DNA from: Escherichia coli
GTDB taxonomy: Bacteria > Pseudomonadota > Gammaproteobacteria > Enterobacterales > Enterobacteriaceae
Assembly (NCBI RefSeq): GCF_003019035.1
Contig: NZ_CP027447.1
Strand: one strand, 5' to 3'
Length of the DNA stretch: 64,000 nucleotides
A program made the position numbers and the translations under genes. The notes below the pieces were generated by a model. It saw only the letters and a program-made list of their open reading frames with translations, was not told where the DNA came from and did no database searches. Of this stretch, positions 5,247 to 45,383 are shown in pieces (the stretch's first letter is position 1; each line of letters begins with the position of its first letter).

Positions 5247-5322
5247 TCCTCTGTAGTTCAGTCGGTAGAACGGCGGACTGTTAATCCGTATGTCACTGGT
5301 TCGAGTCCAGTCAGAGGAGCCA
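5247..5322 (+). tRNA. asnV: tRNA-Asn (GUU)
   Basis: Third identical 76-nt tRNA-Asn copy read directly from the sequence. Confidence 0.93.
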
Positions 5323-6374: not shown

Positions 6375-7454
6375 TTAACTGTTCAAATCAGAAGTCGTAT
6401 TCCCCGGTAGAACAATATTACTGGCAGCAAGTTCGCCCATGTTGTTATATATCGCACAGGCAGCTTCGATGATGGGCATCGCCAGAGCTGCGCCACTCCC
6501 CTCACCTAAACGCATCTCCATATTGAGATAAGGCTCCAGCCCCAAATGCGACAGCGCAATACGCGCCCCTTTTTCTGCCGACAGGTGAGAAGGAATGAGA
6601 TACGGTTTGATCGCAGGAGACATCTGGCAGGCTGCGAGCGCAGCAGCATAAGAAAGAAATCCATCCAGCAACACGGGTAAACCGCAGGAAGCAGCGCCTA
6701 ACATCACGCCAGCCATTCCGACCAAATCAAATCCACCCACTTTTGCCAGAACATTAACGCCATCCTGCGGATTTGGCTGATTCAACGTAATCGCCCGGCG
6801 CACAACATCAATTTTATTAGCCAGTTTATCTGTCGGCAGGTTTGCGCCAATCCCAACCACTTCTTCAGGATCCCGGCCAGTGATTGTGCTGACTATTGCT
6901 GCTGCCGGTGTCGTGTTTGCCATCCCCAGTTCACCTACACCAAACAGCGTGACACCGTTTTTTGCCAGCTCCCGCGTATAACATATGACGTCCAAAAGCA
7001 ACTTTTCAGCCTGACGGCGACTCATTGCCGGAGCTGAAGCAATATTGCCGCTACCTCGTGCGACACGCATGTTGATAAGCCCGGGGATAGGCTCAGCAGT
7101 ATCAATACCAACATCAATTACGTGGACGTTAGCGCCCGCTTGTGCTGCCAGCACACACACGCCGGTTGTTCCGCGGGTCATATTTTCAGCCTGTATGGCT
7201 GTCACTTCTTTTGGAGAAATAGCGACCCCTTCCTCCCAGACGCCGTGATCGGCACACATAACCAGTATCGCTTTTTTGCCCACATGCGGTATGCCATTCA
7301 ACCCCGGCATTCCCGCCAGTTGTACGCCAAGCGCCTCCAGCTTTCCCAGGCTACCAACAGGTTTGAGTAACCCGTCAATATGCCGTTGTGCACGCGACAT
7401 AGCGGCAGGATCGATGGCTGGGATCGTATTCAGTAAATTGGCAAGTGTTTGCAT
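6375..7454 (-). CDS. cobT: Nicotinate-nucleotide--dimethylbenzimidazole phosphoribosyltransferase
   Basis: 359-aa ORF ([40 protein letters not shown]…), canonical CobT; first gene of the cobTSU order. Confidence 0.92.
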
Positions 7455-7465
7455 GTCACGTCTCT

Positions 7466-8209
7466 TTATAGCAGTGCCAGCAGGAAGACCAGTTCACCAA
7501 GCTCTATGGCTGCTCCCAGCGTATCGCCGGTTTGCCCGCCCAGCGTACGTTTGAGAAGCTGACCGAGGATGAAAATCGCCACCATCGTCACCACCATAGC
7601 AGCCACACCATGCATACCCGGCAATAATACGGCAGCAAAAATAGCGGCTAAGCCGAGTGTGACGCAGGTTTGTCGCCCATCAATTTTGCCAATGAACACA
7701 TTGCCAAGCCCTTCTTCCCGCGCATAACGATGACGATACATCAATAATGCGGCAGTCCCGCGGCTGACCGCACATGCTGCCGCCAGCGATGCAAGGATCG
7801 GTTCGCCACGCAGAGCCAACTCGCTTAACACCAGAATCTTTGCCAGTACCACAAAAATCAATGCCAGACCGCCGTGGGTGCCTAAACGGCTATCACGCAT
7901 GATTTCCAACATGCGATCGCGGCTACGTGCAGAAAATACGCCATCACAGGTATCAGCGAGGCCATCCAGGTGGAATCCCCCGGTCATCAGCGCCAGCACA
8001 AGTACGCTAAACAGTGCCGCCAGTGGTACGCCACACCATGCCTGCAGCACCATGAAGACCAGCCCGCTAATCGCGCCAAGCAATAATCCAATCAAAGGAA
8101 AAGTAATAATACCGCGAGAATAATGCTCGAAATCCAGTCCCTGGGACCAGCGACGCGGTACAGGCAGACGCGTAATAAATGAGAGCATCGCCCAAAATAA
8201 TTTACTCAT
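7466..8209 (-). CDS. cobS: Adenosylcobinamide-GDP ribazoletransferase (cobalamin synthase)
   Basis: Multi-TM ORF; start set at [18 protein letters not shown]… giving a 4-nt overlap with the cobU stop (translational coupling). Confidence 0.9.
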
Positions 8210-8751
8210 TTGATTTTTACTCCAATACCCGAAACCACCAGCCATACTTCATTTGCCGCAGCGGCCAACTGCTGGTTTACCCGCCCGGCAATATCACGAA
8301 AATGTCGTGCCAGACGACTCTCCGGCACAATCCCCATTCCCACTTCGTTAGTCACTAATACAACCTTTGCGGGGCAACGTTGGCAGGCAGCAATCAACGA
8401 CTGAATCTCAGCATTAATCGCCTGTTCCATCGCCTGATAATCCCATTCATCAGGGTCTTTATCGCCGCCATAATCAAACAACAGATTAGTCACCATTGTG
8501 GTAACGCATTCCAGCAGCACAGCCTCATTCGGGTTAATGTCTGCATGAATTAATTCATCAAGATGTTGCCAGCGCTCCACTGTGCGCCAGTGCGCCGGGC
8601 GGCCTTGCCGATGATGTTCTATCCGTGCAGCCATCTCATCATCAAGGATTTGCGAGGTAGCGATATACAGAACCTGTGAAGAGTCCCCAATAAGCGCCTC
8701 TGCGTGGCGACTCTTCCCGCTCCGTGCGCCCCCCGTCACCAAAATCATCAT
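8206..8751 (-). CDS. cobU: Adenosylcobinamide kinase / adenosylcobinamide-phosphate guanylyltransferase
   Basis: 181-aa ORF with P-loop ([20 protein letters not shown]…). Confidence 0.92.
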
Positions 8752-8884
8752 ACCGACTCCTGATTCAAATGTATGATGGTATTCATTGAACAGAACAATG
8801 GATCCCCCACCGTTGCTGACCGCAAAACATTTACGCGATTAATACTGCGCGTAATATAATTAAAAATCCAGCATTCTCAATCCA

Positions 8885-9391
8885 TTACGAAAGAAGATGG
8901 CATTGCGGAATAGCCAGACTTCCTCGTGTTAACGTCCGACAAAATGCGTCATTGACAGCGGTTTCTCTGGCATGACAGATTTCATTAAGATAATGGATTA
9001 ATGCTACAGCCCCACCCGCCGGACCATTCAGCAAACGGGCATTGTGTTCTGTAATCAAAATTACCGTCGTTCCCTCAGAATGAGCGAGCCATTCTGGTAC
9101 GGATATCTCGCTTTCAGCTGCTATCAATAGCAGCACTGAATAATCGCTATACGCATCTGATAACGATTGCACAGGCCCACCGTCAAAAGGCTGGAAATCT
9201 TGCTGCCAGTCCTCACCAACAAAACAGGTTATTGGCAATATTTCCGCCAGATGTTTCGCCAGATCCACATCTCCAGATAAGAGGCAAAAAAGAGCTATCG
9301 ATTCGGGTTTTATCGTTTTCATGCCCCTCGCCCTCCACTTAATTTCCTGTAATGGCGGTCTGGTTGATAAGCCATGAAACAAGATTGCCAC
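8885..9391 (-). CDS. Hypothetical protein (145-168 aa) at the position of the missing cbi operon; function unknown
   Basis: Open frame between the riboswitch-like leader and cobU. GTG start at 9391, or ATG (MKTIKPESIALF…) with a GGAGG-like RBS at about 9322. I do not recognise a family; may be a remnant or fusion. Confidence 0.35.
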   Translation of the reverse strand: MAILFHGLSTRPPLQEIKWRARGMKTIKPESIALFCLLSGDVDLAKHLAEILPITCFVGEDWQQDFQPFDGGPVQSLSDAYSDYSVLLLIAAESEISVPEWLAHSEGTTVILITEHNARLLNGPAGGAVALIHYLNEICHARETAVNDAFCRTLTRGSLAIPQCHLLS

Positions 9392-9539
9392 ACCTTAAGT
9401 GCAGCCCTGGTGCCTGTCGGCACTGCGATGAAAGAACTAAATGATGCCGCCATACCCTGATCCTTTCAGGGTGGTAGGGGTATAAAGACGCGCCTGTACT
9501 CTACCGGACGCTTCCGGGCAACCCACTTCCCACCGAAGT

Positions 9540-9705
9540 TGTTGGTATTGACTGACTGGCTGGTCTTCTGGCTTAGCGTCATCCTCTCCCGACCTTCCCA
9601 ATCTCGCGATCAGTGGCATTTTCGGGTTTGTCAGCATTACAGCAGCGGGGGCTGCGAGGGATTTTCACCCTCTTCCCAGGCACAAATGTGCCACACCTGT
9701 CAGCG
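9540..9705 (-). ncRNA. Cobalamin (adenosylcobalamin) riboswitch, cob-operon leader type
   Basis: Minus-strand RNA contains GGGAAGAGGGUGAAAAUCCCUCGCAGCCCCCGCUGCUGUAA (fits the cobalamin core GGGAA…GGUG.AA..CC…GC.G.CCCGC…GU.A), then GCCACUG, then a B12-box AAGCCAGAAGACCAGCC (compare btuB AAGCCCGAAGACCUGCC). Confidence 0.7.
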
Positions 9706-9806
9706 TATGTTATGAGCTGATTTCACTTTTCCCATAACAGGGAAATAACGTTAATTATTCATTCCAGAGTTTATTTAAACCGTCCTCTTTTTTTGGGGCA
9801 TTTACT

Positions 9807-10721
9807 CTATACCGTTTCCATCGCCGCATTATCACTCACTTGCTGTCGATACACCTGCGGCGTAACCTGATAAGTCTGACGGAAAACTTTGCAAAAATAA
9901 CTTGTTTGCGAAAAACCTAAATTACGCGCAATGCTGGCGATGCTCCAGTCACTATGGCACAGTAACTCACGAGCGCTGGCCATCCGTTGTTGGTTTACCC
10001 ACGCATTAAACCCGATTCCATGGTATTTCTTAAATAACTTACTGAAATAATAAGGGCTTAGATAAACGTGCGAGGCGACATCTTCCAGACGCAAATCGTC
10101 TGATAAATGCGCATCAATATAACGTAAAGCTTTTTTCATTTTATTGTCGTGGGGACCAGGCGCACGAGTCTGGCGCAACGAATCTGACTGAGATTTGTTC
10201 TCTTTAATAACCACAAAATTGAGTTGTTTTTTTAGGCAATTTTCTACAATCAACTTCAACAAATCCGCAGAGGCCATAACTCTTGAGTAATCCATCTCAG
10301 GGACTTTGCGAAATTCATTAAGTAATTCGGGATCTGCCTGCCAGCAATCATCGACATTCAGAATATCGACCAAATCGACATCATCATTACGCAGACGAAC
10401 TTGCCCGCACAATACAAAACCAACTAAATGTCCGGCGATTACCAGTGGAATAGAGAAATCGGTTAATCCGGCATGACAGCGATAAATACAAGGCTGATCG
10501 GATTTAGAGGCTTCCAGGCCCCCACAACGATCGCTCATGCGACATCGAGTGCTTAGCTGAGGGTGTTGCCGCATCATCTGACAAAATGGAGTGAAGTTAA
10601 ACAGCTCGGAAATTTCATCGCCGTGAATATTGACCACGACAACCGCAAGGCTGGTCGCCTGCGCAAAATCCTGCGCGATTTTATTAATGAGTTCTGAATT
10701 AAGTGTCGCCGCAGAAATCAT
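9807..10721 (-). CDS. pocR: AraC-family regulator PocR (activator of pdu/cob in response to 1,2-propanediol)
   Basis: 304-aa ORF with C-terminal AraC HTH (…IASIARNLGFSQTSYFCKVFRQTYQVTPQVYRQ…); sits between the cob leader and pduF as in Salmonella. Confidence 0.88.
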   Translation of the reverse strand: MISAATLNSELINKIAQDFAQATSLAVVVVNIHGDEISELFNFTPFCQMMRQHPQLSTRCRMSDRCGGLEASKSDQPCIYRCHAGLTDFSIPLVIAGHLVGFVLCGQVRLRNDDVDLVDILNVDDCWQADPELLNEFRKVPEMDYSRVMASADLLKLIVENCLKKQLNFVVIKENKSQSDSLRQTRAPGPHDNKMKKALRYIDAHLSDDLRLEDVASHVYLSPYYFSKLFKKYHGIGFNAWVNQQRMASARELLCHSDWSIASIARNLGFSQTSYFCKVFRQTYQVTPQVYRQQVSDNAAMETV

Positions 10722-10923
10722 GATAAAACCTCCCAGTTAATTTATTGTTATAGCAAAACAATTGTTTTACATTTAATCTTCACATCATCCTTGATGATTT
10801 ACTGACGAGAAGCACAAAGGACAATAACAAAAGCCTCCGTGAAGCGGGAGACTTTTTAATAAGTTCGGAAAGCAGATCACAAACAGTAAAAAAATAAACG
10901 TTTATAACTGCCAGATTATTTCG

Positions 10924-11733
10924 TTATTCGCTGATTTCTTTAGGCGTTACACTATTGACAGGTAAATTCTTTGCAATGAGATAGCGATAAATCGCCGCAC
11001 CAACACATGCCCCAATGATCGGTGCAATAATGGGTACAATGAAATAAGGAATATTGCGTCCACCAGTCATCGCAATTTCCCCCCAACCCGCAAACCAGGT
11101 GAAAATTTTAGGTCCAAAATCACGCGCTGGATTCATGGCAAAACCGGTTAATGGTCCGGTAGAAGCACCAATAACAGCAACCAGAATACCAATGAGTAAA
11201 GGCGCAAGCGGTCCTTTGGGTACGCCATTACCGTCATCGGTCAACGCCATAATCAACCCCATTAACATGGACGTTATGACCACTTCGACCAACGCAGCTT
11301 GCCATACATTAATCGCCGCTGCTGGATAAGTACTGAAGATACTGGCGAGTTGTAAACTTTCTGCGCTACCACGCACTATATTGTGAGCCGATTCAAAATC
11401 GGTAAACAAACTGCTGTAGAGAGAATATGCCAGAACCGCACCACCAAAGGCACCCGCTAATTGCGCCACACAAAATGGCAGCACTTTACGGGCTGGGAAA
11501 GAGGCAAACAGCCACAGAGCAATGGTAACTGCCGGGTTGAGATGAGCGCCGGAAATACCTGCCGTAAGGTAAACAGCAAGCGAAATCCCTAACCCCCATA
11601 TGATACAAATTTCCCACAGTCCCAGACTTGCCCCGGCAACTTTCAGGGCGCACAAACAACCAATGCCAAAAAAGAGGAACAGTCCGGTGCCCAAAAACTC
11701 GGCAACGCATTGCGCCTTGAGTGAATCATTCAT
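10924..11733 (-). CDS. pduF: Propanediol diffusion facilitator (MIP/aquaglyceroporin family)
   Basis: MIP-family ORF with NPA motif (…GAHLNPAVT…); start set at MNDSLKAQ…; divergent from pduA. Confidence 0.88.
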   Translation of the reverse strand: MNDSLKAQCVAEFLGTGLFLFFGIGCLCALKVAGASLGLWEICIIWGLGISLAVYLTAGISGAHLNPAVTIALWLFASFPARKVLPFCVAQLAGAFGGAVLAYSLYSSLFTDFESAHNIVRGSAESLQLASIFSTYPAAAINVWQAALVEVVITSMLMGLIMALTDDGNGVPKGPLAPLLIGILVAVIGASTGPLTGFAMNPARDFGPKIFTWFAGWGEIAMTGGRNIPYFIVPIIAPIIGACVGAAIYRYLIAKNLPVNSVTPKEISE

Positions 11734-12244
11734 AGTGACACCTTCTTTACGGAGTTTTTCTTTATCAGCCAACTATGCGCTGATTGTTGTGTATACCGAG
11801 CGCAACTATAAAAAATTGCTCTGCAGAAAATATTGCCAACATGCATGACAGACTCGTGTAAAAATCGTGCTAACATAACAAATTATTGTCATTGCCGAAT
11901 CATGCAACACAGCGTTAATCAGTGTTGAAAGTAATAATTCCCACCAAACTTTTACAGTAAAAAATTGCCATCATGACATAATAAAATTGAAACAAATATC
12001 ACAGTTCCTTCCTCGAACCAAACTCAACGAAATATTACTCGCGATTAAACTCACTAGACAACGCAATTAATTCACATTGAAACATCCACAAAATAACCAA
12101 TAAATTAATAACATATAGTTCATAAAAGCAATTTTATAATATTTGTTCTCTATTAATTTTTCTCATTAGCCGATTAAGTCAGCCATTCTTTTTCCTCGCT
12201 TTTTTTTATAGTCATATCGTCAAAAAAATCCAGGCGAGGTCTTT
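11734..12244. promoter_or_regulatory. Divergent pduF / pduA control region
   Basis: About 510-bp AT-rich intergenic region between divergently oriented pduF and pduA; by analogy with Salmonella it should carry PocR-dependent promoters. Individual sites not identified. Confidence 0.5.
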
Positions 12245-34907: not shown

Positions 34908-35059
34908 GGTCATTCTCCTTTACGATGATAACCGTCGCGTAAGCAAAAAATTGCCCCATTTTTTTGGATTCCTCAGCGACAACAACTGTCGATTTTTAGT
35001 AAATATCTATCCGGTACGAAGCCCGGCCTCTTGGTATGAATGATTGGTTTGAAGCAAAA

Positions 35060-35095
35060 AATAACCGACGCTGATGAAACGTCGGTTTTTAGTCA
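35060..35095 (-). terminator. Candidate terminator after yeeY
   Basis: Hairpin aaccgacg-ctgatgaaa-cgtcggtt; T-tract on the minus strand. Confidence 0.45.
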
Positions 35096-35173
35096 TTTTT
35101 TGACAGCGGCGCATTGTGCCTAAATGGGGGAGAAATGACAAGAGAATGAGAGGCTTGTCATAATAATTTTTCT

Positions 35174-37399: not shown

Positions 37400-37450
37400 A
37401 TGACACGCGTTCAATTTAAACACCACCATCATCACCATCATCCTGACTAG
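37400..37450 (+). CDS. hisL: his operon leader peptide (7 consecutive His codons)
   Basis: atgacacgcgttcaatttaaacaccaccatcatcaccatcatcctgactag translates to MTRVQFKHHHHHHHPD*. Confidence 0.93.
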   Translation: MTRVQFKHHHHHHHPD

Positions 37451-37513
37451 TCTTTCAGGCGATGTGTGCTGGAAGACATTCAGATCTTCCAGTGGTGCAT
37501 GAACGCATGAGAA

Positions 37514-37549
37514 AGCCCCCGGAAGATCATCTTCCGGGGGCTTTTTTAT
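37514..37549 (+). terminator. his attenuator terminator
   Basis: agcccccggaaga-tcat-cttccgggggct followed by tttttatt, between hisL and hisG. Confidence 0.9.
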
Positions 37550-44709: not shown

Positions 44710-45383
44710 TGCGCCTATAAGGCTCTCTTACCAGCCGCGCCCTAACAGGCGCACACGATCTGACATTTGCATCCAACTTCGTTACTTACGGCCCGTAAAC
44801 GGGCTGCCCGGATAGGGAATCGATAACTGCTCTCCCATTTTATCCTCTTCAAGCTGGTGCTTTATGTAATCCTGTATCTTCGCCGTGTTCTTACCCACCG
44901 TATCGACGTAATACCCTCTGCACCAGAACTCCCTGTTCCTGTATTTGAATTTCAAATCAACAAACTGCTCGTAAAGCATTAGACTGCTTTTCCCTTTCAG
45001 ATATCCCATAAAGCCGGATACGCTCATTTTGGGCGGGATCTCCACAAGCATATGGATATGATCTGCACAGCATTCAGCTTCCAGAATCCGTACACTTTTC
45101 CACTCACACAGCTTTCTCAAAATACAGCCTATTGCTCTACGCTTCTCTCTGTAGAACACCTGTCTTCGGTATTTTGGCGCAAATACTATGTGATATTTAC
45201 AGTTCCATCGGGTGTGCGCTAAGCTCTTTTCGTTCCCCATTGGGACCCCCTTTTGATTTCTTGTTTGACACTTGCAGTTGCCAGACCGCAAGGTGTTTTA
45301 ACAAATCAAAAGGGGTTTTAATAACTGGCTCAAAGCTGAAAGCTTTCCGGAACCCCCAGCCTAGCTGGGGGTTTTCTGTGCAC
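44710..45383 (-). mobile_element. IS200-type insertion sequence (IS200/IS605 family); boundaries approximate (about +/-40 bp)
   Basis: Contains a tnpA almost identical to my memory of Salmonella IS200 TnpA, plus the characteristic upstream stem-loops (cccccagctaggctggggg; RBS-occluding hairpin). No terminal inverted repeats are expected for this family. Confidence 0.8.
44782..45237 (-). CDS. tnpA: IS200 transposase TnpA (HUH / Y1 family)
   Basis: MGNEKSLAHTRWNCKYHIVFAPKYRRQVFY…CCADHIHMLVEIPPKMSVSGFMGYLKGKSS…; HxH motif present; ORF track begins at an upstream in-frame Met. Confidence 0.9.
   Translation of the reverse strand, partial: GNEKSLAHTRWNCKYHIVFAPKYRRQVFYREKRRAIGCILRKLCEWKSVRILEAECCADHIHMLVEIPPKMSVSGFMGYLKGKSSLMLYEQFVDLKFKYRNREFWCRGYYVDTVGKNTAKIQDYIKHQLEEDKMGEQLSIPYPGSPFTGRK

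Follow-up and report, generated by a model that had tools for sequence, protein, structure and literature searches.

The sequestration of the ribosome-binding site (RBS) by cobalamin riboswitches is an established mode of control, S. typhimurium's cob operon included (PMC5282855). The cob (cbiA) leader of Salmonella enterica is also among the known systems most like the element analyzed here, which lies in a 64,000-nt stretch of Escherichia coli DNA (hereafter, the window). Both elements belong to Rfam family RF00174, lie downstream of pocR and are approx. 82% identical in nucleotide sequence over the aptamer and onward up to codon 3 of cbiA; the RBS hairpin, the start context ATGGCGGCA and an invariant block of 26 nt are shared as well. 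The loci differ in that, in the window, (i) the genes cbiA-cbiP are deleted, the start codon opening a cbiA'::'cbiF fusion that is followed by a truncated cbiG, and (ii) the approx. 250 nt in which Salmonella has its Pcob and 5' leader are missing.

The btuB riboswitch of E. coli shares with this element the host species, an AdoCbl-class aptamer and RBS sequestration (PMC5282855), but it occupies another locus and has another sequence. It is present in all E. coli, whereas the pocR-linked switch is found in approx. 12% of complete genomes, and its target is a transporter and not, as is probable here, a mini-ORF together with a truncated biosynthetic protein.

At the ppe2 locus of Mycobacterium tuberculosis, a B12 riboswitch gates a translated upstream ORF (uORF), to which the next gene is linked by termination-reinitiation (PMC11260477). 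The gene overlaps described below (ATGA, or 20 nt) suggest a similar uORF logic, in which coupling would play the same part, although the riboswitch class and the phylum are different and the uORF is here a fossil fusion of two biosynthetic genes. A further B12-riboswitch-controlled regulatory RNA is AspocR. Rli55 and EutX (Listeria, Enterococcus) are also regulatory RNAs under the control of B12 riboswitches, located at B12-dependent catabolic microcompartment loci (for Rli55, PMC5282855). These systems resemble ours in the presence of a cobalamin riboswitch at a B12-dependent catabolic microcompartment locus where the supply of B12 matters; however, they act through non-coding or antisense RNA, while the element of the window lies in sense orientation behind pocR, with a translational platform and coding ORFs.

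The riboswitch itself is already annotated: the RefSeq annotation (PGAP) of E. coli CFSAN061771, 100% identical to the window, labels a "cobalamin riboswitch" on exactly these bases. In the full-text literature searched we found no description of the E. coli arrangement, nor of the conservation of the leader after cbi loss, the fossil cbiA'::'cbiF uORF or the conserved truncated CbiG. In the annotation, the truncated CbiG appears as a "hypothetical protein", and the 44-codon ORF that precedes it is unannotated.

The layout of the locus is given in Table 1. A sequence-only reading had placed a cobalamin riboswitch with a B12 box at 9540-9705, behind pocR and ahead of a short ORF and cobUST, and had noted that the biosynthetic genes of the Salmonella type were missing; each of these assignments was confirmed. 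The locus contains none of the genes cbiA-cbiP, and thus no cob operon of the Salmonella type: the only cbi remnants are approx. three codons of cbiA, 35 degenerate codons of cbiF and 135 codons of cbiG. The products of cobU, cobS and cobT function in nucleotide-loop assembly and cobinamide salvage.

Table 1. Features of the pduF-ldtA region (positions within the window)
Feature	Position	Strand	Basis
pduF	10924-11772	minus	gene call
pocR, propanediol-responsive AraC-type activator	9807-10721	minus	NF047788, 553 bits; PGAP
pocR-aptamer spacer, 91 nt	9716-9806	minus	
Cobalamin riboswitch aptamer (RF00174)	9541-9715	minus	109.4 bits, full model
Conserved core GCCACUG of the aptamer	9611-9617	minus	sequence reading
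B12 box AAGCCAGAAGACCAGCC, inside the aptamer	9558-9574	minus	sequence reading
26-nt platform block CAACAACTTCGGTGGGAAGTGGGTTG	9519-9544	minus	leader alignment, n=15
RBS hairpin ACCCUGA-AAGGA-UCAGGGU	9454-9472	minus	MFE fold and leader alignment
Mini-ORF cbiA'::'cbiF, 44 codons, unannotated	9319-9453	minus	homology and openness across lineages
cbiG', 145 aa, "hypothetical protein" WP_001524956.1	8885-9322	minus	NF004463, partial match
Candidate cobU-proximal sigma-70 promoter TTGAGA-16-TATATT	8853-8880	minus	10/12 consensus matches
cobU	8206-8751	minus	NCBIfam equivalog above cut-off; PGAP
cobS	7466-8209	minus	NCBIfam equivalog above cut-off; PGAP
cobT	6375-7454	minus	NCBIfam equivalog above cut-off; PGAP
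ldtA	next after cobT		

Several further RNA elements were found in the window. The enterobacterial sRNA STnc230 (RF02075, 76 bits) maps to 10782-10865 on the plus strand, between pduF and pocR and opposite to both, a position conserved in Salmonella, in all Escherichia lineages examined and in the more distant relative L089 (65-82 bits). The histidine operon leader is located at 37426-37549 (plus strand, 132.6 bits), STnc490 at 45250-45373 (minus strand, 146 bits) and STnc240 at 35054-35128 (minus strand, 68 bits). Three tRNAs with identical scores are present at 1018-1090, 2839-2911 and 5247-5319; two of these positions are tRNA-Asn in RefSeq, flanking ldtA and nac-cbl.

An Rfam scan of positions 8000-12000 revealed RF00174 as the sole strong cis-regulatory match (E value 1e-27, model positions 1-189 of 189, 109.4 bits against a gathering score of 31.5 bits), and a scan of the whole window repeated it. 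In nine related loci the aptamer scores 103-113 bits (112.9 bits in L089 and 103.4 bits in L059, another relative); the Salmonella aptamer scores 106.9 bits. In an alignment of nine sequences the B12 box is almost invariant and the GCCACUG core is conserved.

The structure of the aptamer is maintained as well. In the same alignment, 85% of the structure cells are paired, compared with 32-48% in slid controls, a result somewhat favored by the transfer of the structure from the Rfam alignment of the window's own sequence. Five pairs have changed on both sides, one of them (U-A to A-U, columns 38/155) among lineages with the deleted operon, and the covariation score was reached by none of 500 shuffles. 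On its score, its B12 box and core and its maintained structure, the element is a member of RF00174, and it would be predicted to respond to AdoCbl.

The expression platform was examined in an alignment of 15 leaders, five from deleted loci and ten from loci with an intact cbiA. The block CAACAACTTCGGTGGGAAGTGGGTTG is invariant in all 15. The RBS hairpin, which is seen in the minimum free energy fold, has the Shine-Dalgarno sequence as part of its loop, and its 3' arm is immediately followed by the AUG. Across the 15 leaders, 94% of the hairpin is paired (18-47% in slid controls); it is too conserved for covariation to show, and is shared as a motif with the cbiA leaders of Salmonella and Citrobacter. 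The first 20 nt downstream of the AUG are invariant in the four Escherichia lineages that were compared first. The translational expression platform of the Salmonella cbiA type is therefore intact at this locus, and its sequence suggests no loss of the capacity to sequester the RBS.

The deleted architecture is not confined to E. coli. It was also observed in six further Escherichia lineages – E. whittamii (L005), two GTDB Escherichia species (L006, L007), E. albertii (L084), E. marmotae (L086) and Escherichia sp. E4736 (L087) – and in L089 and L059. Among the Escherichia lineages, identity to the window is 0.93-0.95 for the aptamer and 0.91-0.95 for the platform, compared with 0.74-0.85 for the mini-ORF and 0.79-0.84 for cbiG'; the values for pocR and for intact copies of cobU are 0.89-0.92 and 0.88-0.91, respectively.

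Between these lineages, aptamer and platform together are 92-95% identical, while the adjacent remnant shows about 79-84% identity (Fisher p 1e-6 to 1e-7), and dS in pocR, cobU and cobT amounts to 0.3-0.6. Across all seven lineages, 14% of the aptamer columns are variable, as opposed to 42% in cbiG' and 50% in the body of the mini-ORF. The contrast extends to L089, which is approx. 80% identical to the window in pocR and ldtA: its aptamer and platform are 87% and 93% identical, while dS is 1.3-3.1, i.e. synonymous sites are saturated. Among the carriers of the deleted locus, neutral divergence ranges from 0.3 to more than 1.3 per site, and the leader evolves 5-20 times more slowly. It is under strong purifying selection and is evolutionarily maintained, and the term "orphaned", which the sequence-only reading had applied to the riboswitch, is not appropriate for a leader that has kept its complete cbiA-type platform.

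A separate, partial operon loss was observed in Hafnia paralvei (L051, 11266-17504). The cobalamin aptamer of this locus scores 110 bits and has a platform of the intrinsic-terminator type (CCCGC...GCGGG, then T7). It is followed by a C-terminal fragment of cbiF, a full-length cbiG (62% identical to that of Salmonella) and two large genes on the opposite strand, which look like a helicase and ATPase defence pair; cbiA-E/T and cbiH/J were not found within 9 kb.

In a mapping onto intact pocR-cbi loci taken from 80 genomes, the leader homology with Salmonella was found to run from 9719 to 9445, over aptamer, platform and the initial three codons of cbiA. A 44-codon ORF, which had been missed when the short ORF and cobUST were correctly placed behind the riboswitch, is formed by the 131 nt that separate the cbiA start (ATG 9453) from the start of cbiG' (ATG 9322). 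A blastx search with 9444-9323 gave no significant match, and the origin of this segment was resolved only by alignment of the peptide with CbiF C-termini, which extends through the motifs TG.R.AL and F..D.HY.KL. The mini-ORF is therefore an in-frame cbiA'::'cbiF fusion, composed of the first cbiA codons and the last approx. 35 codons of cbiF.

In intact operons, cbiF ends 20 nt into cbiG (ATG...AAAGCCTGA). This native overlap is preserved in L089; in Escherichia the stop codon of the mini-ORF overlaps the start of cbiG' as ATGA, and in L059 the two reading frames are directly fused in frame. In all three arrangements, ribosomes entering at the riboswitch-gated AUG would be delivered to cbiG'. 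The lengths and junctions of the mini-ORF and of cbiG' are identical in all seven Escherichia lineages, and both frames are open. In simulations on the observed substitutions, the openness of the mini-ORF was not significant by itself (P=0.075), and its dN/dS is 0.58 (CI 0.32-0.99); a hairpin within it (9405-9387), considered as a terminator, was rejected, since it folds no better than shuffled sequences (z -0.2 to +0.8 in four lineages) and is not conserved. For cbiG', 9.1 stops were expected, and openness in seven lineages has P<5e-5.

The 168-aa ORF of the sequence-only reading does exist (8885-9391, GTG start), but homology and PGAP favor the start at ATG 9322, which gives 145 aa, and the nature of the product, a conserved truncated CbiG, had not been recognized. 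CbiG is cobalt-precorrin-5A hydrolase. The cbiG' product comprises the N-terminal third of this protein and a short tail: it is 43% identical to residues 3-125 of Salmonella CbiG and matches only profile positions 1-126 of 351 of NF004463 (73 bits, cut-off 546). Neither a full-length match to NF004463 nor any genuine Pfam match (CbiG_N, CbiG_mid and CbiG_C) was obtained, and a Pfam Nup96 match on the ORF was spurious.

Two family motifs of CbiG have been lost in cbiG', GATGIAVR being replaced by AAESEISV with a deletion of 4 aa, and SGHxGGAN by NGPAGGAV. Across the Escherichia lineages dN/dS is 0.40 (bootstrap CI 0.30-0.53), unevenly distributed: omega is 0.28 in codons 1-68 and 0.23 in codons 89-116, blocks with normal dS, and approx. 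1.2 in codons 69-88, where the lost GATGIAVR loop also falls. The comparison with L089 gives an omega of 0.31 at 50% amino-acid identity. The loss of the motifs and the regional omega values indicate that cbiG' is not a working CbiG, yet is partly constrained at the amino-acid level.

Among 1.84 billion representative proteins (phmmer), true short relatives of cbiG' occur only in Escherichia and L089; two other short matches to the CbiG N-terminus (P0050, P0052) proved to be artefacts, produced by frameshifts in full-length cbiG genes of low-coverage assemblies. The AlphaFold model of the cbiG' product is of moderate confidence (mean pLDDT 63.8) and has a disordered tail; a Foldseek search of the PDB with this model yielded only generic alpha/beta matches (E>0.01), and a profile search of PDB sequences gave no match.

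The spacer between pocR and the aptamer is 48 nt long in L059, approx. 120 nt in L089 and approx. 330 nt in Salmonella. In Salmonella, Pcob and the beginning of a 468-nt leader reportedly lie in this spacer, as described by Richter-Dahlfors and Andersson in 1992. Of the Salmonella pre-aptamer leader, only the last approx. 60 nt were matched in the window by blastn and local alignment; the spacer showed no similarity to the region 10912-11187 of the Salmonella locus L015, and hence no long leader with Pcob of the Salmonella type. A promoter scan of the spacer, in which a 5-nt indel distinguishes lineages in the seven-lineage alignment, found no sigma-70-like site, and no terminator-like site is present on the minus strand from the pocR stop codon to the aptamer. 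Because the Pcob region is absent, read-through from pocR is the probable source of transcription into the riboswitch, in which case the leader would be propanediol-induced.

Taken together, these observations are best explained, in our view and with moderate confidence, by a cobalamin riboswitch of the AdoCbl type, akin to that of the Salmonella cbiA leader, that still works although the cbi genes are gone and that gates the unit formed by the mini-ORF and cbiG'. One old deletion would have joined the first cbiA codons to the end of cbiF, so that the mini-ORF terminates on the native cbiF/cbiG coupling junction, and another would have truncated cbiG after about 135 codons. On binding of AdoCbl, the conserved hairpin would sequester the Shine-Dalgarno sequence and AUG that serve the mini-ORF, which would no longer be translated; translation of cbiG' would stop with it, if the two are linked by termination-reinitiation or coupling. 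The cbiG' gene has an SD-like GGAGG of its own and could thus be translated independently of the mini-ORF. Expression of cobUST, which would have its own promoter, may also drop, through less read-through or a less stable mRNA.

A more specific proposal concerns the role of cbiG'. It might encode a small protein, repressed by B12 and probably induced by propanediol, that has a new role in the handling of corrinoids or in the physiology of Pdu in enterobacteria that do not make B12, the riboswitch having been kept over more than genus-level time specifically for this protein by way of the fossil uORF with its old cbiF-cbiG junction. We put this forward tentatively and regard it as rather doubtful; given the fast evolution and the lost motifs, the function of the protein could be marginal.

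The alternative implied by the sequence-only reading is that the riboswitch has been kept mainly for AdoCbl feedback on cobUST, the mini-ORF and cbiG' being translated spacers that shield the transcript; with the RBS closed, approx. 700 nt would be untranslated and subject to Rho termination or decay before cobU. Each of the seven Escherichia lineages has at least cobS on the same strand no more than 1.2 kb downstream, the openness of the ORFs beyond chance fits a need for translation, and in Salmonella this leader stands at the head of an operon with cobUST at its end (PMC5282855). Tight control would also be favored by the lethality of excess CobS to E. coli (PMC8749415).

Other observations make this explanation unlikely. 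In L089 (pocR-riboswitch-mini-ORF-cbiG'-ldtA) and in L059/RIT691 (pocR-riboswitch-fused ORF-nac-cbl) the aptamer, the platform, the mini-ORF and cbiG' are retained with no cobUST at the locus. In the window, cbiG' and cobU are separated by an untranslated gap of 133 nt, and cobU has a separate SD. The promoter-like site TTGAGA-16-TATATT lies within this gap; its -35 hexamer and neighboring blocks are invariant across Escherichia, and it is kept in K-12 despite the loss of the sequences upstream of the truncated cbiG' remnant. No C-rich, G-poor, rut-like stretch was detected between 9453 and 8752 (C/G ≤1.18 in every 78-nt window), so nothing in this interval speaks for the Rho step, and the sole terminator-like hairpin is the one rejected above. 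Finally, the amino-acid constraint on the two conserved blocks of cbiG' goes beyond what a need for translation alone explains.

The spacer between cbiG' and cobU (8752-8884, minus strand) contains the blocks TTCGTAATGGATTGAGAA, TACGCGCAGTATTAAT and TCAATGAATACCATCATACA, which are invariant or nearly so across Escherichia and more conserved than cbiG'; they probably represent the promoter or operator region of cobU.

E. albertii bears on the same question. In its locus (L084/L085, 3435-4877) cobT is absent and cobU has become a pseudogene, with CTG in place of the ATG, four deletions and stops in all frames. We had considered this species as a case of leader constraint without cob genes, an argument that was withdrawn, since cobS is functional and merely anciently divergent (omega 0.02, dS 1.36 relative to E. 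coli; dS approx. 0.5 in the adjacent pocR, leader and cbiG'). The locus is a mosaic in which different histories are combined and the lone cobS is being maintained, and its strong constraint behind the switch is a point in favor of feedback on cobUST.

The promoter-like site of cobU and the two units with no cobUST at the locus nevertheless suggest that the conserved direct target of the riboswitch is most likely the mini-ORF/cbiG' unit, ranked above cobUST, and that AdoCbl feedback on cobUST is plausible as a secondary effect.

We also considered whether the riboswitch acts on the message upstream of it, as the 3' part of a pduF-pocR transcript, modulating the fate of pocR mRNA, and hence the induction of pdu, in response to the supply of B12. 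The gene pocR is the one neighbor present at every riboswitch locus, the spacer is very short (48-120 nt) and has no terminator or recognizable promoter, and B12-dependent tuning of pdu would be physiologically sensible in a non-producer. To our knowledge, there is no precedent for a sense-strand 3' riboswitch that controls an upstream ORF. A functional analogue would be the B12-riboswitch control of pocR in Listeria. One cobalamin riboswitch of Listeria that acts via a regulatory RNA is mentioned in PMC5282855. However, conservation of the RBS hairpin, of the start codon and of the first approx. seven codons points to downstream translational control, and in species with an intact cbiA the leader also sits behind pocR, where its role is the control of cbiA. 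We consider such an action on pocR quite improbable.

The view of the riboswitch as a non-functional relic, left by a deletion too recent for decay to have set in, agrees with the absence of the classically controlled genes but is scarcely credible, being already contradicted by the conservation analysis, i.e. by the sharing of the deleted architecture among E. coli, six further Escherichia lineages, L089 and L059, by the slow evolution of the leader and by Rfam scores about equal to or above that of Salmonella.

In order to determine how widespread the locus is within E. coli, we searched 5426 complete genomes for the segment 8700-9850 (3' end of pocR to 5' end of cobU), counting it as present when at least 80% was carried. 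It was found in 643 genomes, all of which are pocR/pdu-positive; 644 genomes are positive for pocR and 644 for the leader. In the remaining genomes cobU is kept and the riboswitch is missing, with at least six truncation classes (query starts 626, 795, 840, 912, 913 and 1113). In strain ECZP248 a pduV fragment is fused to the cbiG remnant. K-12 lacks the riboswitch, and IS5 cuts within its cbiG remnant, which bears out the earlier remark that the arrangement is not that of K-12.

Each class of deletion or insertion endpoints removes pdu, pocR and the riboswitch and leaves cobU, the candidate cobU promoter being retained in most of them as well; in one class an ISL3 transposase directly abuts cobU. 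In K-12, the pseudogene beside IS5 that is labeled "cobalamin biosynthesis protein" (L002, 5002-5145) is the 3' end of the cbiG' remnant; compared with the pdu-positive allele, it has a further deletion of 9 nt. Two loci from other assemblies, L004 (a contig of a "Citrobacter sp." MAG) and L065 (a 383-nt contig of a Streptomyces cahuitamycinicus assembly), have a pocR 98-100% identical to that of E. coli and most likely represent E. coli DNA that was mis-binned or is a contaminant.

The pdu-positive genomes, about one in eight among complete E. coli, thus carry a second AdoCbl riboswitch besides that of btuB, which is not discussed in the K-12-centered literature searched. The pdu-positive E. 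coli include lineages studied for gut inflammation. The locus represents a natural case in which a riboswitch has persisted although its operon was lost: the in-frame deletion kept both the gated start codon and the coupling junction, so that the switch would have been re-aimed at the remaining genes. It bears on how bacteria that do not produce B12 tune corrinoid salvage and propanediol use to the supply of B12, and on whether the N-domain of CbiG functions outside de novo synthesis.
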